A model generated the notes under the pieces. It was not told the origin of the DNA. It saw only the letters and a list, made by a program, of their open reading frames with translations, and made no database searches. Below, in pieces: positions 1,134 to 21,935 of a stretch of DNA of 64,000 nucleotides. The stretch covers positions 19,943 to 83,942 of the forward strand of contig CAZKRD010000003.1 of NCBI GenBank assembly GCA_964555185.1, in the 5' to 3' direction. Position 1 is the stretch's first letter. Each line of letters starts with the position of its first letter. A program made the position numbers and the translations under genes. The DNA comes from an uncultured Candidatus Saccharibacteria bacterium (lineage in GTDB: Bacteria > Patescibacteriota > JAQUNI01).

Positions 1134-1724
1134 ATGCAAGAACAAGCTCAAGAGGAGGTGGAAAAACCGCAAAATGTGACTGCTAATACGCCGGTTACGC
1201 AGCCACAAAAGAAAAAGCACGGTTGTTTATGGGCGCTTCTGGTGGTCATTGGCTTGATTCTGATTATTGGAATTGTTTTGATTGCATCATGTAGTAAAGC
1301 ACTTAAAGAAGCTGAGGAACAGGAACGAGAAGAAATAGAGAAAGAAAAAGTTGTCACAGATACTGAAGCGGAAGGAGAGACTATCGATGAAGAAGCTATA
1401 GAAGTAACGCAAGTGGATATTGAGGAATTTATGGCGGAGTTTGATGATAATCAGTTAGCTGCTGAAGAAAAGTATAAGGATAAATGGGTGCGGATGGAGG
1501 CCAAAATTCGGAATATTAGTGATGACATTTTCGGTACGCCGTTTTTGTCATTAGAACCTGTTGGTAGTGATGAGTTTACGATGACATCGGTTAAATGTAA
1601 TTTTGAGGATGCGGAGCAACTAATGGAAGTTAAAAATGGTGAGATTATTACGGTGCAAGGAAAAGTAAGTAGTCAAGATCTGGGTGTTATTTCATTGCGT
1701 CATTGTGAGATTGTGGGCGAATAA
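1134..1724 (+). CDS. membrane-anchored OB-fold (tRNA_anti-like) protein
   Basis: N-terminal TM helix (LWALLVVIGLILIIGIVLIA), acidic E-rich linker, C-terminal ~100 aa (KWVRMEAKIRNISDD...ITVQGKV) resembling tRNA_anti-like OB-fold proteins. Confidence 0.35.
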   Translation: MQEQAQEEVEKPQNVTANTPVTQPQKKKHGCLWALLVVIGLILIIGIVLIASCSKALKEAEEQEREEIEKEKVVTDTEAEGETIDEEAIEVTQVDIEEFMAEFDDNQLAAEEKYKDKWVRMEAKIRNISDDIFGTPFLSLEPVGSDEFTMTSVKCNFEDAEQLMEVKNGEIITVQGKVSSQDLGVISLRHCEIVGE

Positions 1725-1747
1725 CTTAGAGCTGATATAAAAACTAA

Positions 1748-1798
1748 AGGCCTAAATCAAAAATACTTTTTGTATTTGCGATTTAAGCCTTTTTGTTT
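1748..1798 (+). terminator. hairpin + T-run downstream of 1134..1724
   Basis: aggcctaaatc ... gatttaagcct (11-bp arms, 1 mismatch) followed by ttttTgttt. Confidence 0.4.
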
Positions 1799-3433: not shown

Positions 3434-4027
3434 TTAAGGTAAACTTTCACAAGCAAGGCCATCGTTATCATTACCATCTAACCTATGAATGTTCCCAGCT
3501 CCTTGTTGCACACAATAGTTATAGCAGGCCTGAGCGGCGGCGTGAGTTGTGAAATCAGAACAATTATATCTGTTATAACTACAATCACAAACTGCTGTCG
3601 TGGGCGGTGGCGTAGGCTTAGGTGTCACTTTGGGTTGTGCAGTAGGGGTGGGTTCGACAGGTGTCGGTTCTAGTTCTTGTGGTTGAGGCGGTTGTTCTTG
3701 TTTTGGCTCTTGAATCAATGGTTCAACTTTTTGGGTTTGTTCGGTTTTGGGTTGTGTCGTAGGAGCGGGTTCAACAGGTGTCGATTCTGATTCTTCAGGT
3801 TGAGATGGTTCTTCTTGCTCTGGTTCTTGATTTAATGATTCAGCTTCTTGGGTTTGTTCAGTGGCTGATTGTTCCTGTACACCTTCTTGTGGTTGTTCTG
3901 CTTCGGTTGTTCCTGTTTTCGTCTCCTCTATATTGGTTTCTTCTTCTCTAGGGATTTGAGTGGTTTCTGTACAACCAGATAAAATCAACACGCCAACTAA
4001 AATAACAAATAATGTTATTTTTTTCAT
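3434..4027 (-). CDS. lipoprotein with Pro/Glu/Thr-rich tandem repeats and C-terminal Excalibur Ca-binding motif
   Basis: Lipobox LILSGC; ~100-bp tandem DNA repeats encoding EPxPTxQPK units; C-terminal DGNDNDGLACE matches the Excalibur DxDxDGxxCE motif. Confidence 0.6.
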   Translation of the reverse strand: MKKITLFVILVGVLILSGCTETTQIPREEETNIEETKTGTTEAEQPQEGVQEQSATEQTQEAESLNQEPEQEEPSQPEESESTPVEPAPTTQPKTEQTQKVEPLIQEPKQEQPPQPQELEPTPVEPTPTAQPKVTPKPTPPPTTAVCDCSYNRYNCSDFTTHAAAQACYNYCVQQGAGNIHRLDGNDNDGLACESLP

Positions 4028-4036
4028 CTTTTTGAA

Positions 4037-4294
4037 TTATTTTGCAAGCCCATTTCGTCTTAAACAATTTTGATAAGACCTTTCGAAATCATCACTTATT
4101 AAAAACTGTTGTTTGGCGACAAACTCTTTAAAAGTGCCATCGGTCTTAAAACTTCCCCCTACGGTTTCATAGCATTTTTTCCTAATCTGGCTTGGTCGCC
4201 ATTCAAACCAATAAAACCCAAATCCTAGAATGAGAAGCACCAAAACTACTAAGACTGTTTTCCAAATAAAGATTTTTTTGATTTTTTCTCTCAT
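4037..4294 (-). CDS. small single-TM protein (paralog family WFxxRPxQIRKxCY...CLxxxGL)
   Basis: 85 aa; TM helix then conserved motif shared with 5091..5420 and 5429..5683. Confidence 0.4.
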   Translation of the reverse strand: MREKIKKIFIWKTVLVVLVLLILGFGFYWFEWRPSQIRKKCYETVGGSFKTDGTFKEFVAKQQFLISDDFERSYQNCLRRNGLAK

Positions 4295-5683: not shown

Positions 5684-6505
5684 ATGTTTAGAAAATATAC
5701 CTTGATTTAAATCACAAAACCTCCCGCCAGATTATGGTCTTGCGACCAACAGACTCTTTCGAGACTGACTTTGTAAAGCAAGTTCCTCTGACGAGAGGCT
5801 CTCTATGCTTTACAAGGCTTTTGATGCCATATCAGTTGAAAACTGACTTAGGCGATTTGATTGTAGGGTCTAACTGGTTAACTCCTCTTACATCAATTAT
5901 TACTTAGCCTTTTATAATCTTATTATACAGCAGAGGCTTATTATCTGTAAATCTTAAAATGAACATTAGCGCCTCGCTCTTGAAGCCAAGGCCTGTTCAA
6001 AATTTCCTTGCGCTCTTACTACTTGAAAGCGACTTACCAATTCGTTCACTGTCCCCCAAAAACAAGTTTTTTACGATAAAGCTGGAAACGAGAATGATTC
6101 CGATGAGTGAAATGCACAGAAGAAACAAGATTATCAGGAATATCAAGAAGATGAGGCAGTATTATTGATTCTTGCATTTTCCGAAGTCTCGGTGTAAGGT
6201 GGTATTAGAGTCGCAAAAAACACAGTTCAAAAAAGGACAATCTGGTAACCCTAAAGGTCGGCCCAAAGGAACTAAGAATTTCTCTACTATTTTTGATGCA
6301 GCTGTCAAACAGATAGCGATAAAGGATAACATCTCTGTAGCACAGATTGCTTTCGTAGTAGTAAAGAAGCTCAAGAGAAAGCAAGAGAGATCATAAAATT
6401 TTTAAGAGAAACACAAAACGAGAACGGCAACAATTAAACAAAAAAGGCGATAAAGAATCAACCTGTAAAAACAGGTAAAAAACAGGTGGGTGGTAGAAAA
6501 GCAAA

Positions 6506-7973: not shown

Positions 7974-9011
7974 CTACAAATCTTCCTTCATCAACTTAAA
8001 ATTCACCTGGTAGGTGTAAAGAGTAATGTTTTTCAATTCTTTGAGAGCATATTTTAATTTCTTGTCTACTTCCAAAACCACAATTACTCCTTTAACTATT
8101 TTGTCTTTGGCAAGGTTTTCTCGAACCCAAGCAATATAACGCAGTATCTGACCGACAACTGCATCGGAACTTCTGCCCTTTTTTAGCTCGATAACTAAAT
8201 ACTCCTTGCCATCTTTAAATCGAGCTAAAATATCTATTGGACCAACTGGTGTAGCATATTGTTGGCTTACCAAGTCCCCTTCCTCTTCGATCAACTCGTA
8301 TTTCTTACCGAAAGTTGTTTTACTCCAGTTAGCTATTAGAAAATCCTCAAGATGGCTCTCCATGCCAAAATTGACCAAATCTGCAACTCCATGTTCCTCG
8401 GCTTCCTTCTTTATTGCCTCTTCTTCGCTTTGAGAAACACCAAATGGGCTACTTCCGGAAATATTTCCTAAAACACCATCCAGTTGCCACAGGGTTATAT
8501 CGTGCTTATCTGCTAACTCCAACAACACTTGGTTGACCTTCAGATACTTATCAGCAAAGGTATCTCTTGGCAAAAACCTGGGAAATAGATTAAGTTTCTT
8601 TAAAGCCGACTCACTTTTGGTATTCCACACACCGTATTTGGCAGGATAAACGACTAGGAGAATAGGGGTAACAACCGCTCTACCCAATCCCTTGATATTA
8701 TAGCTGCTTCTTTTACTAAACGCCTTCTGTAATCTCTCTTTTATGGGGATATTCTCATCAAGAAGAAGATGCAGAAACTTCTTTAGTGCGTCCATATCAG
8801 AGGTAACTAGATTTCCTTGCCTATGTATTCCCTCCCAGTGAAGGTTGTTTTTTAGGAGTAAAAACGATTTGAAATCTTCTTTTATAAGACCATCGAGGTT
8901 AGCCGGATTAAACAATTGCCCATATTCTCCAACCACCTTTTTCTCTGACGTTACCCACCATGGGTCTTTTGCCCTGTTTTTAACAACTTTCTGAATGATT
9001 TCTTGTTCCAT
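7974..9011 (-). CDS. NucS/DUF91-like PD-(D/E)xK nuclease domain protein
   Basis: C-terminal PIDILARFKDGKEYLVIELKKGRSSDAVVGQILRYIAWV matches the conserved DUF91/NucS nuclease core. Confidence 0.5.
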   Translation of the reverse strand: MEQEIIQKVVKNRAKDPWWVTSEKKVVGEYGQLFNPANLDGLIKEDFKSFLLLKNNLHWEGIHRQGNLVTSDMDALKKFLHLLLDENIPIKERLQKAFSKRSSYNIKGLGRAVVTPILLVVYPAKYGVWNTKSESALKKLNLFPRFLPRDTFADKYLKVNQVLLELADKHDITLWQLDGVLGNISGSSPFGVSQSEEEAIKKEAEEHGVADLVNFGMESHLEDFLIANWSKTTFGKKYELIEEEGDLVSQQYATPVGPIDILARFKDGKEYLVIELKKGRSSDAVVGQILRYIAWVRENLAKDKIVKGVIVVLEVDKKLKYALKELKNITLYTYQVNFKLMKEDL

Positions 9012-9410
9012 AGGTCTATTTTAACAAAATTATAATAATTCTTTACACTGGCAACAAAAATATGATGAATACTAAAGACACAAATCCTCCAAAGCATAAA
9101 CCACGGAAGTATTTAGAAATACTGCGACAACTTGGGAAAAATGGGGTCGGGGTCGACTCTGATTTTTCTTTAGCTTAAACTCAAAAGTTTTACACTTAAA
9201 GTCCGATGTTGCTCCGCATCGTGGATAATGTTAGAACTATTATCCAGCGACAAAATGAGTATATTTACATCCCAGACTTATCTTCACAAGGTCAGATTTA
9301 GTTTATTGATTATTACTCCACCCCACTACTCACTATATATTTTGAATAAAAGGTTCCTGACACCTTTTTTCCCAGGCAAAAATTTCCTCCCCCCAACCCC
9401 CTCCATTTTT

Positions 9411-9448
9411 GCCTGCCTGCTGTTTTGGTAAGGCGAAATTAACAGGCC
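9411..9448. repeat. left 38-bp terminal inverted repeat of RM cassette
   Basis: gcctgcctgctgttttggtaaggcgaaattaacaggcc is the reverse complement of 13099..13136 with one mismatch. Confidence 0.85.
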
Positions 9449-9451
9449 AAA

Positions 9452-10912
9452 TCAATTTTTGAGTATAGTCAGGTCAATATCAATCTGCTTTCCAGCGACC
9501 AAATCGCCAGCAATAGATTCCAGTTTTTGCTTGATTCGTTTGGTTTTCTCGTGAGTCAAAACAACTTCCCGATAAACTTTTGCGATTTGGCCTCTCAGAC
9601 CAGCTGGAAAATTAGGGAATGGTGTATTCAAAAATTGATTTGTCTTGATTTCTTTCATCTTTGACCCTATCGCAAGCCCAGCACAATAAAGTCGCATATA
9701 GTTGCAGTTCATAAAACAAGACATAAATAGTAAATCAGTATCAGGATAACCGGAGACCCTATAAATCCCTTGATTGTGTTGGGCTTTACCATACAGAGCT
9801 ATGTCAAAGAACATTGCGACACCAACATATTCTCCTCGGCCGCCACGCGAAGTTCGATTGACGAGCAACATCGCATTTTTGTTTAGATTGTTCTTTTCGC
9901 AAGTGATACGCTCCTCGTTTCTAAACGCGCCGAAGTCAGTAATATTTGCCGGCGTAACCCAAAAATATTTTAGTTCCTGACTTGTCCCGACCATGCGTTT
10001 TTTAGGCGTGTTCCCACTCTTGATATTTTTTTGATCAATTAGAAAAAATCCTGCTTTGTAATTCCGAACTAAAAAATCAATCTGCTAAAATTCTTTGCTA
10101 TATGTCCTAGTATCTAAACGAATCTCTTTCCCGATTTTGTTGGTAGTTGGATATTCGTACTGAAATTTCTTTGATTTTTGATTTGAGAGTTCCTTTTCAA
10201 TCAACTCATTGATAGTGGCGGATTTGTCTCTGACAAACCTTTCTTGTTTTATGACCGCCGTAACAAGTTTTTCAATATATTTAATTACTTCCTCCTGATT
10301 TTTTTGGTTCGGAAATGGAATTTTACAATCCAAAAAAAGTGTTTTTGCGTGCTTGATCGTGGTGCCTCGTGAGACAAGGAGTAAGAGTTGAATTTTAAAA
10401 AAAACACTTTTCAGCAATCCAAACACATATAGTTTTTGTTTTGTAAGGGGCAACCTGTATATGCCGCCTGAAATCATATGTTGTGGATAATCTTTATCCA
10501 AAATGATAACCTCGCCGACATTCGAATCTTTTGAAATCAAAATATCACCTTTTTTTAATTCATAATTTTTGAAACTCGAGGGTAGAATAGGAACCACACT
10601 TTCGGGCGAGAATGCAGGCAAAAAATAATCCGGCTGTAACCCCTTTGTTCGAATAAACTGAAATGGAGAATTCGATATATAACTCTGCGATCCGACCTCA
10701 ACTCCTTTATCAGTGGATTTGAGCGGACGATCAAGGAGATCGCGCAAATCCACACTATTTCTATTCTCAATTCTTAATCCTTTATATTGAGAAGCGGAAA
10801 GAGAATAGTGCCTGGAAGCTACTTCATTGGAGCGTATTTCAGTTGGTACTTTAATATAGTTCATTTGTCCAAAAAAACATCTTGTAGAGTTTTCTCTTGA
10901 CCTAAACACCAA
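9452..10912 (-). pseudogene. HsdS-like two-TRD specificity subunit interrupted by a single in-frame TAG (10085..10087)
   Basis: ORFs 10085..10912 (TRD1: GDILISKDSNVGEV...IPFPNQKNQEEVIKYIEKL) and 9452..9994 (TRD2: NTPFPNFPAGLRGQIAKVYRE) are in the same frame; the 31 intervening codons are open and separated only by the TAG. Confidence 0.6.
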
Positions 10913-13008
10913 TCCTTGAATTCCTTGACTGTTTGGGTAAATTCTTCATCAAGCAAGGGTTTACCCTCCTCATCTATTTTAACCTCAAATTTATTACTAT
11001 CAATTTTATAGATCGGAACAAAATGTTTAACACGCTTGATGGTTTTTACTTTGTATCCGACTCGCTGAATATCTTTCACAAAAATGTTGTAGCCATTCTC
11101 ATTGAGTTTCTTCAATTCTTTCTCAGATGGCTTGTAGGCAACGATGACCGTTGTATTGACTCCCGTATCGGCAAATACATTTGCAGGAAGATCGAATAAA
11201 GCAACGACTCTCATTTTTGACATAATCCATTTCCTTGCCTTCTCCCATCTATCAATTGATGCTATCGAATTTGAAAGTATAATACCGACTCGGCCGTTTT
11301 CTTTCAAGATACGGTAAGCATTTTCAAAAAACACAAGGCCGAGATCAATCCAATTTCCATTTCTTCCAACGTGCCAAAGCTCATAGAGTTCAATAATCTC
11401 TTTATCTTTTTGAGTTTTTGGTTCAAATTTCCTATCTTCTCCAAACGGCGGATTAGTTAGGACGATATCAAATTTTTTGAGTTCAGTATAGTCGTCCCAC
11501 GCATCCCAATTTCCGGCCTTGTGTTTTGCTGGAATGAGATTTACTAATTTCCCGTCCTTGTCGAATTTGTGAGTGATGGAACCATAGCCCGGCTGGAATT
11601 CTATCTTGGCGTTTCCGTCTCCGTTCAGAAGCATATTTAACTGTGCTAACATGACCATTTGCACGTCGTTATCAATTCCATAAATGTTTTTATCGTCCAT
11701 TTTTCTGTCGGACTTGACATAAGAAATTGACAAGAAATCTCCGCTGCCAACAGTCGGATCGGCTATCGTGTCCAACGCTTTCGGGTGAACTATATCAACA
11801 AGAAAATCAATCAATGGAATTGGTGTCAAAAATTGTCCCTTCTCGGATTTGGTAAAAGCGTTCGCAAAACGATAGAAAATGAGTTGATATAGATCAGTTG
11901 TACTCGATCTGGTAAAGCTGTAATCCTGCAAGTTATGGACTATTGAACCCACGACGGCAACATGTCCCTCGTTTTTCCAGTCAATAATTGAATTGCTCAA
12001 AATCACTTTATATGTACTTACCGCTTGGGCGCACAAATCCCGCATGCGTTTAATAAATGTTTGTATACTTTGGTCGTTGAGCGTCTTGAAATCGCGTTCA
12101 TTTTGTTCGATATAAAATTTGAGACGATGAATATCCCCGTATTCATCGTCTTGAATATAGTATTTCAACAACTCGTTCTTTTTTTCGTCGAAAATTTTGA
12201 GCGCGATAAGTTGAACCAAAATTTCATATCCGCGCTGGTTCAACATGCTTACCTTGTCGAGCGTTCGCAAAATATCGGAAATCGCCTGATTGATTTGAGT
12301 ACTAAAGACTCCGGTGATAACATCAAGATCATTTACGGTTCGTGCAGACCTGTCAATTTCTATATCAATAATGCGCTTTTTGATTTGATCAAAGGACGGA
12401 ATTTTTCGGAATTCATCGGGTAGGTGGAGAGACAATTCTCTTGTTGAACTGTTTTCTCCTTTTAGGTTGTACGATTCATCAAGGCGAATAAACTTGCCAT
12501 GCTTTTTTTGGAATAAAAATAGCCGTTCGGTGTCATAGAGAACGCCAAGACAAAAGTCGCTCTCCGATTCTTTAATGGCTGGTTTAAGTTGTTGATTATA
12601 GACCGTTTCAATATCCTTGCCATCTTCTTTCTTGAATTCAATGACGGCAATGAGATGACTTCTCAACCAATCAAGGTCGGATTGATTCTTTTTTGTAATC
12701 CAATTTTTATATCTATCAAACCAATTCTTATCGTCGAAAATCGCGCCGTCAAATTTGATGGGTGCAGAATTCTTGTTGCCTTTCGGAAAATAAACCTCCG
12801 AGCCGATAAAATCTTTTTGATAAAGTCCTGAATATACCAATCCGTAGAAAAATTGCCATTTGTAATATTCTTCGTTGGGCGTATTTCTTGACCCCTTGAT
12901 TTTGACCTTCTTATTCAACTTAAGATTGACAGGAAGGAAGGCCATGAAGTCTTTTTTTGTCAAATAGAACTTATCAAATTTTTGTTTTGTTTCAAAAAAT
13001 GTCTTCAT
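10861..13008 (-). CDS. type IIB/IIG restriction-modification enzyme (PD-(D/E)xK endonuclease fused to N6-adenine methyltransferase), BcgI-A-like
   Basis: N-terminal FDGAIFDD...IAVIEFKKED (D...ExK); methylase motif I DPTVGSGDFL and motif IV NPPFG; 3' end overlaps the specificity gene. Confidence 0.8.
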   Translation of the reverse strand: MKTFFETKQKFDKFYLTKKDFMAFLPVNLKLNKKVKIKGSRNTPNEEYYKWQFFYGLVYSGLYQKDFIGSEVYFPKGNKNSAPIKFDGAIFDDKNWFDRYKNWITKKNQSDLDWLRSHLIAVIEFKKEDGKDIETVYNQQLKPAIKESESDFCLGVLYDTERLFLFQKKHGKFIRLDESYNLKGENSSTRELSLHLPDEFRKIPSFDQIKKRIIDIEIDRSARTVNDLDVITGVFSTQINQAISDILRTLDKVSMLNQRGYEILVQLIALKIFDEKKNELLKYYIQDDEYGDIHRLKFYIEQNERDFKTLNDQSIQTFIKRMRDLCAQAVSTYKVILSNSIIDWKNEGHVAVVGSIVHNLQDYSFTRSSTTDLYQLIFYRFANAFTKSEKGQFLTPIPLIDFLVDIVHPKALDTIADPTVGSGDFLSISYVKSDRKMDDKNIYGIDNDVQMVMLAQLNMLLNGDGNAKIEFQPGYGSITHKFDKDGKLVNLIPAKHKAGNWDAWDDYTELKKFDIVLTNPPFGEDRKFEPKTQKDKEIIELYELWHVGRNGNWIDLGLVFFENAYRILKENGRVGIILSNSIASIDRWEKARKWIMSKMRVVALFDLPANVFADTGVNTTVIVAYKPSEKELKKLNENGYNIFVKDIQRVGYKVKTIKRVKHFVPIYKIDSNKFEVKIDEEGKPLLDEEFTQTVKEFKDWCLGQEKTLQDVFLDK

Positions 13009-13098: not shown

Positions 13099-13136
13099 GC
13101 CTGTTAATTTCGCCTTGCCAAAACAGCAGGCAGGCA
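13099..13136. repeat. right 38-bp terminal inverted repeat of RM cassette
   Basis: ggcctgttaatttcgccttgccaaaacagcaggcaggc. Confidence 0.85.
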
Positions 13137-13139
13137 GGT

Positions 13140-13366
13140 TGAGATGGCTCTTCTTTCTTTGGCTCTTGACTTAACGATTCAACTTCTTGGGTTTGTTCAG
13201 TGGCTGATTGTTCCTGTACATCTTCTTGTGGTTGTTCTGCTTCGGTTGCTCCTGTTTTCGTCTCCTCTATATTGGTTTCTTCTTCTCTGGGGATTTGAGT
13301 GGTTCCTGTACAACCAGATAAAATAAACAGGCTAACTGAAATAATAAATAATATTATTTTTTTCAT
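13140..13366 (-). pseudogene. truncated duplicate of the 5' end of lipoprotein gene 3434..4027
   Basis: First ~75 codons (MKKIILFIISVSLFILSGCTGTTQIPREEETNIEETKTG...) and the upstream catctttttgaattatt leader are ~90% identical to 3792..4035; reading then continues into the TIR. Confidence 0.55.
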
Positions 13367-13375
13367 CTTTTTGAA

Positions 13376-14221
13376 TTATTTGTTCAGGCATTCTAAATAC
13401 TGCTTGTCAGACAGGGCTTTCGCTTCCTGCTCAGTCTTAACGACCGTTTCTTCCGCCTTGTCCTTGATCGCTTGTAGCAATTCTTCACTGGAGTAAACTG
13501 CGACCATACAAGTATCGTACTCTGATTGTCTAATATCTCGAAGTTGAGAAGGACTAAAAGGAAATCCTTGTAATCTTTCTGGTAATGGTTCGTATGATTT
13601 CTTAGCGCAGTCGCCTTTCGCATCTAATATTTCAAGTTCTTTAGGTTTCAATGTCTTTTCGGCCTCCTCTTGTATGTAATTCATATTGACCTTGAATTTG
13701 TCAAAACTTAACTGGGTTTCAGCCTTACATTTTTCTATCTTTAATTGAGTTTCCTCTTCCTTTCTTTGCTCTTCGGTTAGCCTTTGGGCTTCTTCCGTCG
13801 CTTTTTTCTCTGCTTCTACTTGTCTTTTTGCTTCCTTCTCGGCCTCAGCCTGTTGAGCCGCCAAGACTTGTTGTTGATGTTTTCTTTCTTCTTCTTGTTC
13901 CTTTGCTCTTCTCGCTATTTTTGCTTGGGCTTCTGCCTCTGCTTCTTCCGCTTCCTTTTCTACTCTTACTCTTTCCTCTGTTTGCCTCTGGAGTTCCGCT
14001 TCTTGCCTCTCTTTTTCCAGCTTAGTGATCTCTCGATCAATCAACTGCTTTCCTATTTGCTGTTCAGTTCTGATTTGCTCCTGCTCTGATGATCTTTGCG
14101 TTTTAACATAAGAAGCCAAGACCGAAAAGTTAATAATCAAAAAAAGCGCAACCCCAGCGCAAATATAAGAGAGAATCCTCCAAGGAAATATTTTTTTAAC
14201 GAAATTCCAGATTCGTTTCAT
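13376..14221 (-). CDS. membrane-anchored coiled-coil protein (E/K/Q/A-rich)
   Basis: N-terminal TM helix, ~150-aa charged coiled-coil segment, Cys-containing C-terminal domain. Confidence 0.4.
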   Translation of the reverse strand: MKRIWNFVKKIFPWRILSYICAGVALFLIINFSVLASYVKTQRSSEQEQIRTEQQIGKQLIDREITKLEKERQEAELQRQTEERVRVEKEAEEAEAEAQAKIARRAKEQEEERKHQQQVLAAQQAEAEKEAKRQVEAEKKATEEAQRLTEEQRKEEETQLKIEKCKAETQLSFDKFKVNMNYIQEEAEKTLKPKELEILDAKGDCAKKSYEPLPERLQGFPFSPSQLRDIRQSEYDTCMVAVYSSEELLQAIKDKAEETVVKTEQEAKALSDKQYLECLNK

Positions 14222-14241
14222 CTTTTTAAATATTTTTATAT

Positions 14242-14296
14242 AAAAACGTGGAAAAACGTGGAAAAACGTGGAAAACCATGGAAAATGGTGGAATTG
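14242..14296. repeat. 10-bp tandem repeat array (gaaaaacgtg x3 plus two degenerate units)
   Basis: aaaacgtggaaaaacgtggaaaaacgtggaaaaccatggaaaatggtggaa immediately upstream of the 13376..14221 start. Confidence 0.75.
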
Positions 14297-14797
14297 CAGC
14301 TCCCAAAGGTTGGGATTTAGAGTGAGGGTTGTAGTAAATCGAGATTGAGGTCGAGTAGGTCAGGTGCTTTATGTTGTCCGATTCAATGCTATGTCAAAAA
14401 CCGTTATAGAAGAGGTTATAAAAAATGCGATAGTTAGCATGACAAGAATGGATATATTTTTTCGTTCCTTTATTCTATTTTTATAATTTGTCCTGCCCTG
14501 CCACTCACTATATAATTATAAAACCTGCTTTCATTATAGCAGGTCGCTTTGATTGAAGGAATCAAAGGAGTTCGAATTTGATTCGGGGTAATAAAAAATA
14601 ATCGCGTCGATAAGCGATTTTTTTGTTGGCTCCCTGTATTGGACGCATTTAGAACTATAGATTGGTACAAGATTAAACAAGAATTTAAGCTTATTCAATT
14701 TATACTCAAACGCAATAATGTTTATATAATGCTTTGAAAAAAATCCCATTTGATTTTGACATTTTCCACATTTTATAATAAAATTAAAGTAAGAATT

Positions 14798-14941
14798 ATG
14801 TCAGACGCAAATTTATTAAACCTTATTATTGGAATCATTGGTGGCGTTCTGGGTGTTATAGCAACGCTTTTGGTTTTTTTTATAAAAATTGGCAGAGCTA
14901 TTGAAAAAATAGACAAGCTTGAAGAATGGAAAAAAATGTGA
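14798..14941 (+). CDS. small single-TM protein
   Basis: MSDANLLNLIIGIIGGVLGVIATLLVFFIKIGR...; first + strand gene of the AT-rich module. Confidence 0.3.
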   Translation: MSDANLLNLIIGIIGGVLGVIATLLVFFIKIGRAIEKIDKLEEWKKM

Positions 14942-15338
14942 AACAAAAATCAATGCAATAGAGAAAGAATTAGCCACCTTAAAAGAATTCAAGGCAAATG
15001 CTCAAAAATTCATAGACAAAAGTATCTATGAATCCAGAAGTCCAATAGAGCTTACTGAATTTGGAAAACGATTATTAAAAGAGAGTGACTTTTACAGCAT
15101 ATTTGAAAAACATAAAAATAATCTCGTAAACAAATTAACCCGATTCTCTCCTGCGACAAAATATGATGTCCAAGAAAAATCTAGAGAGCTTATGAACAGC
15201 TTAAATGATTGTGAAGCTTTCAAACCTTTGAAAACTTATGCCTTCAACAATGGAAAGGATTTCGGACAAATATTAAGAGCGGGGGCTATTCCTCTACGAG
15301 ATTATTATTTAAAGAAACATCCTGAAATAACACAATAA
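14919..15338 (+). CDS. hypothetical protein
   Basis: 139-aa ORF co-oriented with its neighbours; no recognisable motif. Confidence 0.35.
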   Translation: MKNGKKCETKINAIEKELATLKEFKANAQKFIDKSIYESRSPIELTEFGKRLLKESDFYSIFEKHKNNLVNKLTRFSPATKYDVQEKSRELMNSLNDCEAFKPLKTYAFNNGKDFGQILRAGAIPLRDYYLKKHPEITQ

Positions 15339-15445
15339 TTTTAATTTTTTAGAGGCTTCGGCTTAACTAAATACACCTTTTTTTCAGGGTGTATTTTACT
15401 AGCATTGCCTTTTAGGTAATCTGGATAGGGGGAAATAAAAAAGTA

Positions 15446-16027
15446 ATGAAAAATGTAAAAAACAACAAGGAAGATGCAAAAATTATAATTGATTATGCAA
15501 AAATAGAATGTGATAATCTAAAAATTCTTTTGCCTATGTTAGATGATATGCTAATAGACAAAACATCTGATAAAAAGATGCCTGAAGGTTTAGATGACTG
15601 GAATTGGAAAATTGCTGAATTTATTGAGTTTAGAACCTCTTATATCGCTGTAGATATTAGTGCAGATGCTGACTTTGAAGCTGGAGAATGGGGTATGCCA
15701 GTAGCAGGTGGTGGAATGGCAACACCTATTGGCGTAGAGGTAAATGACAAAGATAATCTTATGGTTTTAAGACAGGAAATTGATGCTATTTTAAACCATA
15801 CTATAGATAAGATACCAGAATTTATTTCAATGAAAGATAGACCAAAATGGAAATGCAAAAAATGTGGCAGATTCTTAGGAAAAGAGCTTTCATCATTAGA
15901 TGAAATAAAAAAGTTATTAAGAAATTTTAACATCAAAAAATATTGGAAATGCCGTTCTTGCAAAACACCTAATTATTTTGAGTTCAATGGTAATGAAATT
16001 ATTTTTAAATCTGACTTGACTAATTAG
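15446..16027 (+). CDS. hypothetical protein with C-terminal CxxC...CxxC zinc ribbon
   Basis: WKCKKCGRF...WKCRSCKTP. Confidence 0.4.
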   Translation: MKNVKNNKEDAKIIIDYAKIECDNLKILLPMLDDMLIDKTSDKKMPEGLDDWNWKIAEFIEFRTSYIAVDISADADFEAGEWGMPVAGGGMATPIGVEVNDKDNLMVLRQEIDAILNHTIDKIPEFISMKDRPKWKCKKCGRFLGKELSSLDEIKKLLRNFNIKKYWKCRSCKTPNYFEFNGNEIIFKSDLTN

Positions 16028-16043
16028 TGATTATTGCTATAAT
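16016..16043 (+). promoter_or_regulatory. sigma70-like promoter TTGACT-N16-TATAAT
   Basis: ttgact (16016-16021), 16-nt spacer, tataat (16038-16043). Confidence 0.45.
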
Positions 16044-16235
16044 GTACTTAATAAGGTTCGTTGAATTATAAATAATCTTGTTTTGTGGGATGCACATACA
16101 AGAGAATTGTTTCTAATTTATAGGTAATCCACATAGGTGGACTATAGAAGCCAGAACAATGAATAACAGTTTGTTTTGCAAGCTGGTATTTGTTGTTTTG
16201 GCTTTTTCTTTTTTAAAAAACTTTCAACAAACAAA

Positions 16236-16268
16236 CCGGCAGTACACAAACTGCTGGTTTTTTGTTTA
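16236..16268 (+). terminator. rho-independent terminator
   Basis: ccggcag-N8-ctgctgg then TTTTTGTTT. Confidence 0.5.
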
Positions 16269-16429
16269 AAGATGTCTGAAGTAAGTAATGAGAAAAATAA
16301 TAAAAAAAATAGATAACTCAAAAAAAGAATCTGATTTTGAGGCAAGGAAAAACTTGTCCGGTTTTTTCAGTTTGCTTCTGGAAATAGACCAAAGAGTAAG
16401 CCCGCGTTTATATAAAAAGACTAAAAACA

Positions 16430-16690
16430 ATGAAAATAACAGAGATTCAAATAATTCCAATTAAGCCTCAAAACGGTCTTGTGGCCTTTGCCAGCGTAGT
16501 ATTCGATAATTGTCTCTATCTAGGCTCAATAGGCGTTTATTCCCGCCTAGACGGCACAGGATACCGCCTTACCTATCCCATGAAGAAAATAGGCGACAAG
16601 AATATCAATATCTACCACCCCATCAACAGAGAAGCCAGCGAGGCCATTGAAAAAGCAATAATCGCAAAGGCAAGGGAGATATTAAACTAA
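16430..16690 (+). CDS. spoVG: SpoVG family protein
   Basis: MKITEIQIIPIKPQNGLVAFASVVFDNCLYLGSIGVY...NINIYHPINREASEAIEKAI aligns by eye along its length with SpoVG. Confidence 0.75.
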   Translation: MKITEIQIIPIKPQNGLVAFASVVFDNCLYLGSIGVYSRLDGTGYRLTYPMKKIGDKNINIYHPINREASEAIEKAIIAKAREILN

Positions 16691-16874
16691 ACAACCACTA
16701 AAGAAGTAATGAAAATATTAGACACTATTATTTTAACAATGCCTATTAGTTATTATGATATTACCGACCACTCACACTTCATTCCTTCAGTTGAAGGAAT
16801 GTTGGAAAGCCGACGGGCTTATTGCAAATACCAAAAGCTTTTTAGAAAACGATTTGACTTAGATAAAAATAAGT

Positions 16875-17087
16875 ATGAACAAATGTGAAAAACTTTACCA
16901 AAAAGGACTGAAACAAATCAAAGAAGGGACAAGACTTTCTCCCTTAAGGGCTATTCGCTTGAAATGTCTTGATTGTTCTGGTTGGTCAGAAGCAGAGGTA
17001 AGAAAATGCGTTATTCTTGACTGTGCTCTGTATAAGTTTAGATTTGGTAGAAACATGACAGGGAAAAATCCATCAAAACGTAGATAA
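16875..17087 (+). CDS. small Cys-rich protein
   Basis: CLDCSGWSEAEVRKCVILDC. Confidence 0.3.
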   Translation: MNKCEKLYQKGLKQIKEGTRLSPLRAIRLKCLDCSGWSEAEVRKCVILDCALYKFRFGRNMTGKNPSKRR

Positions 17088-17640
17088 AACTATAGACCGA
17101 TAGTCTCCCCTAGATACCCCTCAAACTTACCTCCAAGGGTCTCATCAGAAGGATTAAAGAATTTATATAGCTTTTACAAGGATTTACTAGTAATCTTTTT
17201 ATTTATAAAAATAATTGTGATGAGAGGAGGGGGTGGATCGTTCCATGTCATATCCTGAATACAAAGCAATTCATGACTCTTCCATTAAAAAAGCAAAATT
17301 ATTTTTGAGAATAGAAAATGACTTTTATAGAAAAGAATAAATTTAAAATCAGATTAAGATTTTCTAAAAATAAGTTAAGTGATCAGGCACTTAATAGGGT
17401 TTTTAATTTTATTTTGAACCTGAGTGATTCAGATATTAGCTCCAAAAAATATGAACAAAATAATTGTTCAGAGAAAAATGAGCATTTTCGCTGAAAGTGG
17501 TGTTAGATTTTAAGGGTTGCCATCCAACACCACTTCTAGTAGAAACTAACCCTTTATCAGAAATAATTAGTACATCAATAAGAATAGTGAGCGGTGGTGC
17601 TAATGCCTTCACCGCTTACTATTCCTGTTGAAAAGGCATT

Positions 17641-18078
17641 ATGAGTGAACCAGAAAAGTTGGAAACAATTATAACAAGACGGAAAGAAGGAGAACATACG
17701 CGGGACGACTCGGCGAAGGAATTTTTGCGCAAAAGGGATATTGAGGTGCGTGATCCAGAAAAAGCAAAAAGAAAACAATCAGTAAAGGTGCTAAAATTGC
17801 AATTTGTTGGCATCTACATAAATTTATTGGGACTGCTTAAGGGTAATGAATTAAAAGTTTATTTGTATATGCGGGTTAGACGGCGAATGAAAAGAAGCAC
17901 GATTGCCGATGAGACCGAATTTTTTAAGGATAAAAGTATATCAGCCAAAGAGCTGAATATCTCAACACCAACCCTTCTTAAAGCCATCGTTGGATTGGAG
18001 AAAAAAGGACTAGTGAAAAGGGACGGCAGGACTTCTGGCGGATTTGTAAAATTAAAAGTATTTAGTCAGCCCAAGTAA
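17641..18078 (+). CDS. winged-helix DNA-binding protein (replication-initiator/regulator-like)
   Basis: C-terminal ...ISAKELNISTPTLLKAIVGLEKKGLVKRDG... wHTH pattern; iteron array immediately downstream. Confidence 0.4.
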   Translation: MSEPEKLETIITRRKEGEHTRDDSAKEFLRKRDIEVRDPEKAKRKQSVKVLKLQFVGIYINLLGLLKGNELKVYLYMRVRRRMKRSTIADETEFFKDKSISAKELNISTPTLLKAIVGLEKKGLVKRDGRTSGGFVKLKVFSQPK

Positions 18079-18160
18079 AATTTTTTTACCTAGCAAGTAA
18101 ATTTTTTTTACTTGACAGGTAAAGTTTCTTTACTTGGGTAAGTAAAATTTCTTTACTTGG
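18075..18160. repeat. iteron-like array: four ~21-bp units, each a GTAAA-N6-8-TTTACYTGG palindrome
   Basis: gtaaaatttttttacctag / gtaaattttttttacttgacag / gtaaagtttctttacttgg / gtaagtaaaatttctttacttgg. Confidence 0.65.
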
Positions 18161-18641
18161 CTCAAAGCACAAAATGCCTTCTTCTACGCTTATATTAAAG
18201 GAAAAAATAGAAGCAAGAACGCTCTACATAAAGTAAGGCCACATATATAAAGATATAGATATAAAGATATAGATAGAGAAGTATTAACTTAAAGAAGGGG
18301 AAAGAAAAGAAAACTTCTAAAGAAGTTTGTTTCTTCCCCTCTTCTAACCTATCTTTACTTAACCTATCCTTACCTAACCTTACCTGTGCCGTCCGTGGAC
18401 CGTCCACCTATTCTGCTTGTATTGTTTTTTACATGTTTTGCTAACGCAAAACCGATTAAAAAATCTTTAAAAAATACAAAGAATCTTTTAAATCTTTGTT
18501 GGATATTATCAAAAAGAATCAAAAAATAAAGAGTTTTATGCGCGCTTTATAAAAAGAGAAGTGTCCCATTTATAAAAAAGAGGGCCCACACGAGCCTTAA
18601 AAGGTGATTATAAGGAAGTGTATAACTTAAGTTGACAAAAG

Positions 18642-18857
18642 ATGACAAAGAGGTACAATAATATAAAGAACATAAATAGGATGAATAACAATAAAAAGAA
18701 AATTCAACTTTATACCACCCAAGAAGTAGCTGACATTTTAAGGGTCAGTCGGCGAACTGTGTATAGGCTTATTAAATCTGGAAAATTAAAGGCAGTGATG
18801 ATTGGGCAATGGAGAATTAAAGCAGAGGATTTAGATAAGTTTTTAGATAGTCGTTAA
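18642..18857 (+). CDS. excisionase-family helix-turn-helix DNA-binding protein
   Basis: LYTTQEVADILRVSRRTVYRLIKSGKLKAV is the classic HTH_17/Xis pattern. Confidence 0.65.
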   Translation: MTKRYNNIKNINRMNNNKKKIQLYTTQEVADILRVSRRTVYRLIKSGKLKAVMIGQWRIKAEDLDKFLDSR

Positions 18858-18868
18858 TCTAAATTTAT

Positions 18869-20479
18869 ATGAAGAAAGTCGCTATTTACACAAGAGTTTC
18901 TAGCGAAGAGCAAGTAAATGGTTATAGCCTAGGAGATCAACAAGAGAAGTTGCAGGATTATTGTAAATCCAATGGTTTTCTATTAGAAAAAAGACATATA
19001 TACCGAGAGGAAGGAATTAGTGGCGCAAAAAAGGAAAGGCCTGTTTTAAGCCTGTTATTACAGGCAGCTCAAAATAAGGAGTTTGCCTTAGTTTTAGTTT
19101 ATAAATTAGATCGGTTTTCAAGGAGCCTAAAGAATCTCCTTGAGCTAGTTGCTGATTTAGAGAGAAATGGAATTGGTTTTAAGTCAATTACAGAGACATT
19201 TGATACTTCAACTCCGATGGGCAAGTATATGCTTCAGAATTTAGGGTCCATAGCTGAACTAGAGAGAGAGATGATCAGAGAAAGGACTCTAATGGGACAA
19301 ATCAAGTATCTTAAAGAGGGCAACTGGAAGGGGGGCATTACTCCCTATGGATACGATTACAATAAAGAGACTCACAAACTTGAAATTAATAAAGAAGAGG
19401 CTAAGATTGTTCGGAAAATGTATAAATGGGTTGCAGAAGAAGGTTCAACTTCACATTCAGTCCAAAAGCGACTTAATGATTTAGGGATTTCTACTAAGTA
19501 TGGTAACTTAGGTAAAAAGAAGCAGGTTAATGGTGCGTGCTTTTGGAAGAAAAGGACCGTTGGCAGGATTTTAACTAACGAGATTTATTCGGGTACATTT
19601 ACTTATCGTAAATATAAATATTTGGGGAGGGTTAGAGGAGAAGATAATTTACGTCCCGAGGACGAGTGGATTAAGATTAAAACTCCTAGAATAGTTAGTA
19701 AAAAGATTTTTGATTTGGTCCAGAATCAAATAAATAAAAATAAAAAACACTCACCGAGAAATAGTAAGTATAAATATCTTTTTGCCCACATGATTAAGTG
19801 TGGTTACTGTGAAGGTAGGTATGGGAGTATGTATAGTGCTGAACGCAAAAGAGGTGTAGTTGGACGGAAGAGATATTTTTGTCATAACACCAGAGCGGAT
19901 AATAAACAGGAGAAATGTAAAGCCAAAAGCGTGGCAGAAAAAAGAATTAGTGAGCCCATCTGGAACAAGATAGCAGAGGCGTTGAGTAATCCAGCCATAG
20001 CTTTTGAGCAATTGGAAAAGATACAGAAGAAAGAGAACAACATTGAGGAGGTTCAAGAGAAACAGAGAGAATCAGATAAGCTGATCCTTAAGAACAAAGA
20101 AAAATCCAGACGATTACTGGATTTGTATTTGGGAGGTGGGGTAGATAAGGAGACTTACGAAGAGAAAGTGGGGGAGATAAATAAAGAGGCCGATAGCTTC
20201 AGGCGGGAAAAAGTAAGGTATAATAACCTTTTTATTTCCAAAGAAGAGAAGAAGGCGAGAACACAATCAATTCAGGAGATGTATGGGCGGTTCAAGGACA
20301 ATCTTAAGAAAATCACCTATTCTCAAAAGAGAGAAGTGCTTAAAATGTTGATAGATAAGGTAATTATTAAAGGCGCAAAGATTGATATTTACTGTAATAT
20401 TCCCTATAAATACTCGTTTGAGGGACAGTCAACTCTCCTTCCGTGTCTTTGCCTTCGGGGTCGGGCAGAAATTCATTGA
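18869..20479 (+). CDS. large serine recombinase (integrase)
   Basis: N-terminal AIYTRVSSEEQ catalytic serine motif, recombinase domain, Cys-rich zinc ribbon (CGYCEG...C...C), coiled-coil C-terminus. The last ~15 codons read antisense through the LTD gene. Confidence 0.9.
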   Translation: MKKVAIYTRVSSEEQVNGYSLGDQQEKLQDYCKSNGFLLEKRHIYREEGISGAKKERPVLSLLLQAAQNKEFALVLVYKLDRFSRSLKNLLELVADLERNGIGFKSITETFDTSTPMGKYMLQNLGSIAELEREMIRERTLMGQIKYLKEGNWKGGITPYGYDYNKETHKLEINKEEAKIVRKMYKWVAEEGSTSHSVQKRLNDLGISTKYGNLGKKKQVNGACFWKKRTVGRILTNEIYSGTFTYRKYKYLGRVRGEDNLRPEDEWIKIKTPRIVSKKIFDLVQNQINKNKKHSPRNSKYKYLFAHMIKCGYCEGRYGSMYSAERKRGVVGRKRYFCHNTRADNKQEKCKAKSVAEKRISEPIWNKIAEALSNPAIAFEQLEKIQKKENNIEEVQEKQRESDKLILKNKEKSRRLLDLYLGGGVDKETYEEKVGEINKEADSFRREKVRYNNLFISKEEKKARTQSIQEMYGRFKDNLKKITYSQKREVLKMLIDKVIIKGAKIDIYCNIPYKYSFEGQSTLLPCLCLRGRAEIH

Positions 20480-21935
20480 TCCAGACAGTGCGTGGATATT
20501 CTTGGGCTTCTTTAGGGCTTTGAGCTGAACAAATGTTTTGTTCAGCTGGTGTGGGTTCTAGGCTCCAACACCAATCACCATTCATTTTATTATAAGATTC
20601 AGCTTTGGGGGCTTCTCCATATTCAATCTCATCAATTGCTTGGCCTGAGGGCCAGAGGAGCCTGACCCAATCACCACTGTTGTTTAAGGTGATCTTGGTT
20701 TCGGAATAGGGGAGGCTTAGATACTCCCCTGCTTTAATTTCAGAATCTTCAGGAAAGGTATAGGGCCGTGATCCTTTATCCTCTTCGTCATCTAATTGCC
20801 AATTTTCCAGATCAATTTCATCTGGGCCTGGGTTGTAAAGTTCAATAAATTCTCCTTCCGTGTCCTTACCTTCGGGGTCGGGTAAAAATTCTGAAATCCA
20901 GATATGACGGGGATAGCTGGAAGAATCGTCTTTTTCGTCTTCTGAAATTACATTCTTCTGTCCAGGTGTTAAAGTAGTGCTCCAGGTCCAAGTGTCATCT
21001 TCCTTACGATTGTAGGATTGGTTTTTGGGTACAGGGCCGGAATAACTTACCTCTTCCAAGGTTTCATTATTGTGAATCAAAAAGACTGTGTCACCACTAT
21101 TGTTTAAAAGGAATTTTGAACCGGTGTAAAAGGCAAGGTAAGAATAGGCCGGCATCGTGGTGCCGGGATCAATTGTAAAACTTGAGGCGGTCTTATCTTT
21201 TATTTTCCAAGATGATAAATCAGCGGTTGTGTCTGAATTATTGAAAAGCTCAACAAACTCTCCTTCCTGGTCAGAGCCCTCTGGGTCAGGCAGAAATTCA
21301 TTGATTACAATATAGTTTATAGAGGGGGTGGTATCTTGGGGGTAGGCGGCGCTGTTTTTTTGTTTGGGCGTGCCATAGATTGGGCCACCATTGCTGTCTT
21401 TACCATTTATAACTATTTGATTGTTCGTCGCCCAATTATCAGAGCTTGAAGCTTCTTTTTGGGGGTCAACCCTTTCCATGCTTGTTTTGTCTGTACTGTT
21501 GCCGCTCAACCAGTCGCTGGAATTGTCTATTTCATCGATTGTATTATTTAAGTTGTCTTTTAAGACAAGATGCTCTCCAGAGTTTTCTAGAGCGCCGGTA
21601 TAGATTTTGTTAGCGGGAAGGTCGGAGATTGTGTTATCATCGGTGCGCTCAAGCAGATAATAGCTTTTTGCCGGAATTGTATCAGCAAGAGCAATTGTTG
21701 GCGTACCATCTTTTGCTTCTAGGGTCCAACCAGCAAGGCCTATATCTTGATCAGTGTTATTAAAAAGTTCAATCCACTCATCCGCGGTAGAAGCCCCAGT
21801 TCCCATCCAAGCAATTTCGTTGATTAGGACATCACTAGGTGAGGCGGCATAGGTCCTGAAAACAAAAGATTCTGCCCCCAAGCAGAACAGAAGAAATATA
21901 ATTAGTCCGAGCGGCAATCTATATTGCCTACGCAT
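20367..21935 (-). CDS. secreted lamin-tail-domain (LTD) repeat protein, 3'-truncated
   Basis: Signal peptide; four repeats of INEFLPDPEG(S/K)D.EGEF(V/I)EL(F/Y)N; the fourth stops after ...PDPEGKDTEGE and continues as non-homologous residues from the recombinase region. Confidence 0.65.
   Translation of the reverse strand: MRRQYRLPLGLIIFLLFCLGAESFVFRTYAASPSDVLINEIAWMGTGASTADEWIELFNNTDQDIGLAGWTLEAKDGTPTIALADTIPAKSYYLLERTDDNTISDLPANKIYTGALENSGEHLVLKDNLNNTIDEIDNSSDWLSGNSTDKTSMERVDPQKEASSSDNWATNNQIVINGKDSNGGPIYGTPKQKNSAAYPQDTTPSINYIVINEFLPDPEGSDQEGEFVELFNNSDTTADLSSWKIKDKTASSFTIDPGTTMPAYSYLAFYTGSKFLLNNSGDTVFLIHNNETLEEVSYSGPVPKNQSYNRKEDDTWTWSTTLTPGQKNVISEDEKDDSSSYPRHIWISEFLPDPEGKDTEGEFIELYNPGPDEIDLENWQLDDEEDKGSRPYTFPEDSEIKAGEYLSLPYSETKITLNNSGDWVRLLWPSGQAIDEIEYGEAPKAESYNKMNGDWCWSLEPTPAEQNICSAQSPKEAQEYPRTVWINEFLPDPEGKDTEGELTVPQTSIYREYYSKYQSLRL

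Follow-up and report, generated by a model that had tools for sequence, protein, structure and literature searches.

The stretch of DNA analysed here, referred to as the window, comprises 64,000 nucleotides and lies on a 706,972-bp metagenomic scaffold of an uncultured Candidatus Saccharibacteria bacterium. Its left part is occupied by a genomic island that ends in an excisionase-family gene (xis) and a large serine recombinase gene. Upstream of these two genes lies the locus studied here: a gene for a 145-aa protein (17641-18078, + strand, from the list of open reading frames, ORFs), preceded by a hairpin in its 5' leader and followed by four tandem palindromic repeats (iterons), an AT-rich tract, an imperfect hairpin and a group of direct repeats. 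An initial annotation had described this arrangement as a plasmid-like replication and partition module within a mobile element, and we assessed it by repeat and motif searches, profile homology and comparison with viral contigs.

The four 22-bp iterons span 18072-18161, where Tandem Repeats Finder (TRF) and a repeat search both place them (22-bp period, 4.0 copies, score 108, consensus CAAGTAAAATTTCTTTACTTGG), with start-to-start spacings of 22, 22 and 23 bp. Each unit is a 21-bp palindrome, CAAGTAAA-N5-TTTACTTG, with a 15-bp core GTAAA-N5-TTTAC, and the cores are located at 18075-18089, 18097-18111, 18119-18133 and 18142-18156. The array begins inside the last codons of the 145-aa gene, at 18072, with the stop codon (TAA, 18076-18078) falling within unit 1. 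A 19-bp iteron pattern allowing up to two mismatches matched these four sites only in the 64 kb, with 0.74 matches expected, and the core with up to one mismatch gave no further site in the island. The four palindromic units originally placed after the winged-helix gene are therefore confirmed by both searches; the spacer of six to eight nucleotides assigned to them was wrong, being five nucleotides in each unit.

The encoded protein starts with a charged extension of about 65 aa, followed by a winged helix at residues 69-140, and it ends at residue 145 without the C-terminal domain that recruits a helicase or its loader. The winged-helix assignment of the initial annotation is right, though weak in Pfam, where TrmB (18 bits) and MarR (15.6 bits) both stay under their cut-offs; across Pfam, NCBIfam and PADLOC the matches are generic winged helix-turn-helix ones, all sub-threshold, and neither Rep_3 nor any other plasmid Rep family is among the Pfam matches. 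Matches to PHROG profiles are weak as well (E 0.006-0.07), and all of them are to the N-terminal parts of replication initiators, in five families of the O-like, DnaD-like and 'replication initiation protein' kinds. No curated Pfam or PHROG initiator family reaches a significant E-value. The protein is a near-orphan: a word-indexed search found one homolog, P0002, 86% identical and encoded on a 1.1-kb Logan contig (L001). An exhaustive HMMER search of 1.84 billion representatives returned generic winged-helix-repeat proteins and nothing else specific to it, no match was obtained by tblastn among 50,697 phage records, and a PDB sequence search gave nothing meaningful. An apparent second copy of the gene on contig L244, leftward on the scaffold (145-aa ORF, 5868-6305), was rejected as an unrelated repeat protein.

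The iterons proved more informative than the protein searches against curated families. IMG/VR was searched with two adjacent cores (GTAAA-N5-TTTAC, 7-8 nt, GTAAA-N5-TTTAC), which retrieved more than 120 viral contigs, most of them with three to five tandem units at a spacing of 22-24 bp adjoining an AT-rich tract. In some 70 cases the array is contained in a gene of one family, 230-300 aa long, where it occupies the linker (codons ~92-145) between an N-terminal winged-helix domain and the AT-rich tract. According to Pfam these array-bearing genes are replication initiators (HTH_36, Phage_rep_O, RepA_N plus DnaB_2), and their PHROGs (678, 270, 186, 428 and 8102) are the same families that the 145-aa protein touches weakly. 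The origin-in-gene layout of these phage loci is the lambda arrangement. Across 53 non-redundant intragenic arrays, the 60 bp downstream are 76% AT vs 63% upstream, and the downstream value is the higher one in 51 of the 53. The phage core often reads GTAAAG-N3-CTTTAC, with an Asn-coding AT-rich tract after it (loci L005-L123 and L250-L277, from IMG/VR and the Joint Genome Institute, JGI); example arrays are L007 1384-1462, L047 7449-7509 and L067 11757-11861. On genome contigs the two-unit pattern was too permissive, and two-unit Bacteroidales sites made up most of the matches listed.

The cultured Flavobacterium phage FCV-1 shows this architecture too, with another iteron specificity, in gp53 (L278, NC_041845.1 36207-36857), annotated as 'hypothetical protein'. 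Here three GTGCAG-N3-CTGCAC iterons are followed by aataatataattaataataatat, and a helicase is encoded two genes downstream. The phage probably has its origin and initiator, so far unannotated, at this locus.

Homology between the 145-aa protein and the phage initiators was assessed with a custom hidden Markov model (HMM) built from 56 iteron-bearing initiator proteins, for which the DNA motif, rather than resemblance to the 145-aa protein, was the selection criterion. This model matches the 145-aa ORF with an E-value of 9.3e-10, aligning residues 69-140 with model positions 30-98, the winged-helix domain, and ranks it first among the 1065 six-frame ORFs of the window. An hhalign comparison of the protein with the initiator family gave 97.2% probability and an E-value of 3.5e-11. 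The HMM search that the initial annotation had proposed gave no plasmid Rep family in Pfam; the custom model of phage initiators did match. At the DNA level, the array shares the GTAAA-N5-TTTAC core with the 53 non-redundant phage arrays, and its geometry fits theirs (three to five units, a period mostly of 22-24 bp, an AT-rich side). These comparisons show that the 145-aa protein carries the origin-binding winged-helix domain of O-like, HTH_36 or DnaD-like phage initiators, and that the four units after its stop codon are iterons of the type found inside those initiator genes. Since profile homology and a common iteron core coincide, the pair can be described as a lambda-O-type origin-binding domain with cognate-type iterons.

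A split form of this arrangement, in which iterons and then an AT-rich tract come directly after a stand-alone N-domain gene, is also found in phage contigs (L112, L123, L260 and L250/L066). The N-domain proteins of the two IMG/VR contigs L112 and L123 have 133 and 104 aa, the latter beside a cI-like repressor. On L260 (JGI Ga0307928_10006985, a phage fragment) the gene encodes 115 aa, AAGTAAA...TTTACTT sites begin 7 nt past the stop, and the second gene upstream encodes an AAA_22 ATPase; on L250/L066 the stop codon is inside an iteron and a tyrosine integrase adjoins. Because it occurs in phage contigs, the split form is one that replicating phages use. The window resembles them in its stand-alone N-domain (theirs measure 104-150 aa) with an AT-rich tract after it, in the position of the iterons, which begin 0-95 nt from the stop in the phage contigs and, in L250 as in the window, enclose the stop codon, and in the extended arms that it shares with L260. 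It differs from them in that the split contigs are phage-like, that their proteins score clearly above the HTH_36 or PHROG thresholds, and that the window has neither the DnaA boxes of L112 and L123 nor the AAA_22 ATPase of L260. Two DnaA boxes each, TTATCCACA or TGTCCACA, stand beside the iterons at L112 1090-1240 and L123 about 1620-1790 (minus strand), vs at least one box in only 4 of 92 other arrays, which suggests that split origins without the C-terminal domain may borrow host DnaA for helicase loading. No partner proteins are common to the island and the split phage loci.

Comparison of the window with L001 gives a view of selection on the locus. The 145-aa gene and P0002 have the same length and the same stop, with a ratio of nonsynonymous to synonymous substitution rates (dN/dS) of 0.22 at a dS of 0.32. 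Substitutions fall on 5 of 79 iteron positions and on 4 of 72 in the 5' leader, whereas synonymous sites show 24.5 differences in 94.5 (Fisher p about 9e-4 for the iterons and about 6e-4 for the leader), and every GTAAA and TTTAC core is unchanged. This substitution pattern indicates that the 145-aa gene and the iterons are under purifying selection. Homology with L001 starts at the leader hairpin and the sequence further upstream differs, which means that the hairpin moves together with the gene and the iterons.

The leader hairpin (17575-17631, + strand), detected as an inverted repeat with 22-bp arms and by RNA folding, is very stable (RNA fold -36.2 kcal/mol, z -6.1). The window and L001 differ by three substitutions in the stem, and pairing at these positions is preserved on the + strand only, as G-U or G-T. 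The loop reads AAUGCCUU and complements AAGGCAUU, which abuts the start codon of the 145-aa gene, and for this reason the hairpin may control translation; it may be a translational control element of this kind or else a single-strand signal.

On the other side of the gene, the AT-rich tract, direct repeats and hairpin of the initial annotation are all present (18244-18385), the hairpin being statistically weak. The tract at 18244-18283 is, in a stability scan, the least stable 40-mer in 16000-20500 (-37.5 kcal/mol vs an island mean of -49.0, standard deviation 3.9), and TRF finds in it a 14-bp direct repeat with 2.2 copies of 100% identity (18245-18275); it is our candidate DNA-unwinding element. 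The imperfect hairpin (about 18293-18345, + strand) folds marginally better than shuffled sequences (RNA z -2.35, DNA z -1.9) and could serve the 145-aa gene as a terminator or be a palindrome that flanks the origin. Beyond it, TRF identified direct repeats, three in all and 15 or 10 bp long (18344-18385), that contain CTTTACTT and CCTTACCT, resembling iteron half-sites, and the repeat family D1/D4 ties 18345-18360 to the iterons at 81%. Speculatively, these repeats may form a second set of binding sites beyond the AT-rich tract. Their layout recalls origins with binding sites on either side of the unwinding element. Rfam gave nothing credible in 14000-21000.

On balance, and by a modest lean, we favour reading the locus as a split lambda-O-type module for origin recognition, one that would mark where replication of the excised island starts; that the island replicates once excised is the best, albeit unproven, account of the module. 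Dimers of the 145-aa protein would bind the four palindromes. The GTAAA and TTTAC cores lie 10 bp, or one helical turn, apart and the units about two turns apart, a spacing that would set the dimers on roughly one face of the DNA, where they could build an O-some-like wrapped complex. The adjacent xis and serine integrase would excise the island of ~20.8 kb; with less assurance, the O-some-like complex might then mark the origin and help to open the nearby AT-rich tract at 18244-18283. Because the usual C-terminal recruiting domain is absent, helicase loading would need an outside partner, separately encoded or from the host, perhaps reached through the 65-aa N-terminal extension. The conserved 5' hairpin would probably limit translation of the 145-aa protein. 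Replication modules of islands typically adjoin xis-int, a position that the locus shares.

Several observations weigh against this interpretation. In Pfam, HTH_36 (PF13730) and Phage_rep_O (PF04492) give no match to the 145-aa protein at E-values up to 1, and the C-terminal half of the initiator HMM (positions above 150) has no match in the six-frame translation of the window. The island encodes no helicase, primase or loader. No DnaA box, allowing one mismatch, is present within 17000-19000, which sets the window apart from the split origins of L112 and L123. The AT-rich tract lies 83 bp from the last iteron and is directly adjacent in phage arrays, and the asymmetric centre of the iterons (TTT on the sense strand) is inverted with respect to those arrays (AAA or AAT), whose bias may reflect only coding in the phages. 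An AlphaFold2 single-sequence model was uninformative (predicted local distance difference test score, pLDDT, 43) and was not used, and that the 145-aa protein binds these four sites is something we infer from the homology. Finally, for the extrachromosomal circular form that the initial annotation had proposed to look for, no circular-junction or empty-site contig was found, and no excised or amplified form was seen. Of the originally proposed combination of initiator, iterons and AT-rich region, homology to phage initiators and the iteron match bear out the general type; a complete initiator is not supported, given the absent C-terminal domain and DnaA boxes.

The island in which the module resides is of low GC content and about 20.8 kb long, extending from ~385 bp left of the window to ~20430; its GC content is 0.31-0.40 vs 0.41-0.50 to its right. 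It is inserted in an LTD-repeat gene, the remaining part of which was found leftward on the scaffold (L244). A 422-bp direct repeat, 97.9% identical, is present at both ends (L244 8060-8481 and window 20431-20852). It corresponds to one LTD-domain repeat of the target gene, whose other LTD repeats are 73-78% alike. This suggests that the island entered at the boundary of a repeat and that a duplication occurred recently. At the right end lies the 536-aa large serine recombinase (18869-20479, + strand; Resolvase, Recombinase and Zn_ribbon_recom domains). Its ORF extends ~49 bp (~16 codons) beyond the island boundary at ~20430 into the LTD repeat; therefore its last ~16 residues would differ in an excised circle. 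The preceding xis gene (18642-18857, + strand) belongs to the excisionase-family HTH_17 (Pfam 1.2e-20, TIGR01764 3e-16). A promoter scan gave a strong sigma-70-type promoter for xis-int, TTGACA-16-TACAAT (18632-18659, + strand, 11 of 12 matches), separate from the iterons; because it overlaps the first ATG (18642), the true xis start is probably the ATG at 18681, with a product of about 58 aa. The recombinase domains at the end, the disrupted target gene and the compositional contrast identify an element integrated by a large serine recombinase, so the mobile element of the initial annotation is borne out as an integrated island with a split LTD target gene. A 7.2-kb Logan contig (L003) that ends 14 bp past the integrase was considered as a circular or excised form and rejected, its break falling within the 422-bp LTD repeat, where host-side contigs ending in the LTD gene also break. 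Since this repeat breaks short-read assemblies, such contig breaks are uninformative on circular forms.

The cargo of the island (window 7974-13008 and L244 8704-9573) looks defence-type. Among its products are a mad2-like N6-methyltransferase of 715 aa (5.7e-32), two fragments of specificity subunits (mad5-like or type I S), an AlbA_2/Schlafen-like protein and a candidate nuclease, PDC-S02, with a NucS_C fold (3.8e-55); membrane proteins and lipoproteins are encoded as well. With such cargo, and with no helicase, primase, loader, conjugation or virion genes in the island, the element does not have the make-up of the integrated plasmid or phage-plasmid that had been suggested. A 247-bp internal repeat, 93% identical (3796-4042 and 13135-13381), encodes the N-termini of two acidic, Pro/Thr/Gln-rich lipoprotein genes and interrupts Logan assemblies. 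A segment of ~125 bp starting ttcactgtcccccaaaaacaa is present in three copies (L244 5578-5702, 6536-6662 and 8482-8610), each encoding a basic peptide of ~24 aa, M(L/I)SMSEMH..IIRNIKKMRQY; the island starts, at its extreme left, with the last copy (about -385 to -257 in window coordinates). These copies may be remnants of attachment (att) arms from earlier insertions, or a small repeated gene. The GC-skew switch of the island, at about 14.3 kb, tracks gene orientation and not the iterons.

The same locus can be explained in other ways, the most novel of which see in the module a reduced phage origin used either as a weapon, a chromosomal decoy, or as a parasitic handle, a satellite origin fired by a helper's initiator; we regard this idea as unlikely. 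In the helper-phage version, a full-length phage initiator alone would fire the island origin, and the island would replicate as a satellite. As a decoy, to which we give a similarly small share of our confidence, the 145-aa domain would act in a dominant-negative way by occupying GTAAA-type phage origins, and the array would titrate their initiators, blocking phage replication. The lack of a recruiting domain, of DnaA boxes and of any replisome gene would suit such a role, and so would the purifying selection still seen on gene and sites, the defence cargo of the remaining island (mad2/mad5-like methyltransferase with specificity subunits, PDC-S02 nuclease, AlbA_2) and the very common occurrence of the iteron core among phages. 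There is also a laboratory precedent, in that rep-lambda phages are inhibited by lambda iterons carried on a plasmid together with oop (PMC3349717). Like that system and lactococcal Per, the window holds iterons without a complete replicon, in a cell possibly attacked by phages of the same origin type. The lambda phenotype, however, is a laboratory effect of multicopy plasmids (PMC3349717), unlike the chromosomal array of the window, and a single four-site array in the chromosome would be a weak sink. Moreover, the split forms in genuine phage contigs must support replication, and a site beside xis-int suits an island replicon. The lactococcal Per ('phage-encoded resistance') effect is likewise one of multicopy plasmids. 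To our knowledge, no natural chromosomal origin-decoy system has been established, and we know of no phage of this host, which also speaks against a decoy.

A role in expression rather than replication is rather improbable. On this account a winged-helix protein descended from an initiator would have been exapted as a repressor or roadblock, with four dimers past their own stop codon and the following hairpin halting read-through from the upstream operon into xis-int and so keeping the island integrated. It would fit with the + strand orientation of all genes in 14919-20479, with the strong promoter that xis-int has of its own downstream, with the hairpin that follows the array and with the weak MarR, TrmB and GntR similarity of the protein. 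The sites, however, are at no promoter, being downstream of their own gene and 470 bp upstream of P(xis), they have no counterpart elsewhere in the island even with one mismatch, the array has the geometry of origins and not of operators, and the hairpin is the one found marginally better than shuffles. With family HMMs sub-threshold and sites off promoters, the locus does not have the hallmarks of a MarR or TrmB repressor. That the module is a decaying remnant of prophage or plasmid replication, an O-like gene truncated at its iterons with no function left, is very unlikely in our view. A stop codon inside the first iteron, an absent C-terminal domain, a near-orphan protein and an island without virion or replisome genes are what such decay could leave. 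Gene, iterons and leader are nevertheless conserved with respect to L001, which makes a dead remnant unlikely: the dN/dS value is low at an appreciable dS, length and stop are kept in a 14%-diverged homolog with a different upstream context, iterons and 5' hairpin are more conserved than synonymous sites, and no frame-shifted remnant of a C-terminal domain is found downstream. A plasmid-type partition site, that is, a centromere-binding protein with its centromere repeats, we hold to be extremely improbable. Tandem repeats bound by a small DNA-binding protein are characteristic of ParR-parC and TubR-tubC, and the locus resembles these in outline; but no ParA, ParM or TubZ NTPase is encoded in the island, according to its ORF lists and Pfam annotations, and protein and sites are homologous to initiator/origin pairs instead. 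The partition function of the initial annotation is not supported on these grounds.

Among known systems, the module, read as a split origin, is closest to lambda O and ori-lambda and to the Phage_rep_O, HTH_36 and DnaD-like initiators. It has in common with them an N-terminal winged-helix origin-binding domain, by the homology given above, four tandem dyad-symmetric sites at roughly two-turn spacing, and an AT-rich tract on one side with a palindrome beyond it; with the ~70 phage initiator genes it shares an identical iteron core. Unlike them, its protein stops at the first iteron, so that the origin comes after the gene and not inside it, lacks the C-terminal domain that recruits P, DnaB or a loader, and has an extra N-terminal extension of 65 aa. 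The AT-rich tract is also set off by 83 bp, the array is inverted relative to the gene, and the setting is a serine-integrase genomic island and not a phage. Iteron plasmids of the Rep_3/RepA type (pPS10, F, R6K, RK2) likewise combine a winged-helix initiator, about four 22-bp repeats and an AT-rich region, with dimers on inverted repeats. Their iterons, however, are direct repeats bound by monomers with two winged-helix (WH) domains (WH1-WH2), and DnaA boxes are usual, whereas the window has one such domain, palindromic sites, no DnaA box and no Rep_3 match, and does not belong to this class. Finally, Staphylococcus aureus pathogenicity islands (SaPI) and other phage-inducible chromosomal islands (PICI), with their pri-rep-ori modules, and the serine-recombinase staphylococcal cassette chromosome (SCC) are integrative islands with a replication-type module beside the integration and excision genes, as here. 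SaPI iterons flank an AT-rich region. The initiators of SaPI, PICI and SCC elements are helicases or primases, and the island of the window encodes neither.

The lambda-O-type system itself is well known, and the novelty lies in its split, minimal form within a serine-integrase island. A protein without a significant match to any curated family is now recognisable as an origin-recognition module, and the GTAAA-N5-TTTAC core turns out to be common to many diverse phage initiator genes, in which fused and split forms both exist. The iteron pattern offers a simple way to annotate origins in uncultured phages and islands, and the core and the origin-finding pattern may be more useful than the locus itself. 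The locus also raises the question of how a helicase is brought in when both the usual C-terminal domain and DnaA boxes are missing. If functional, the module would mean that a serine-integrase island in a bacterium known from metagenomes only replicates, or hinders phage replication, with a minimal initiator.

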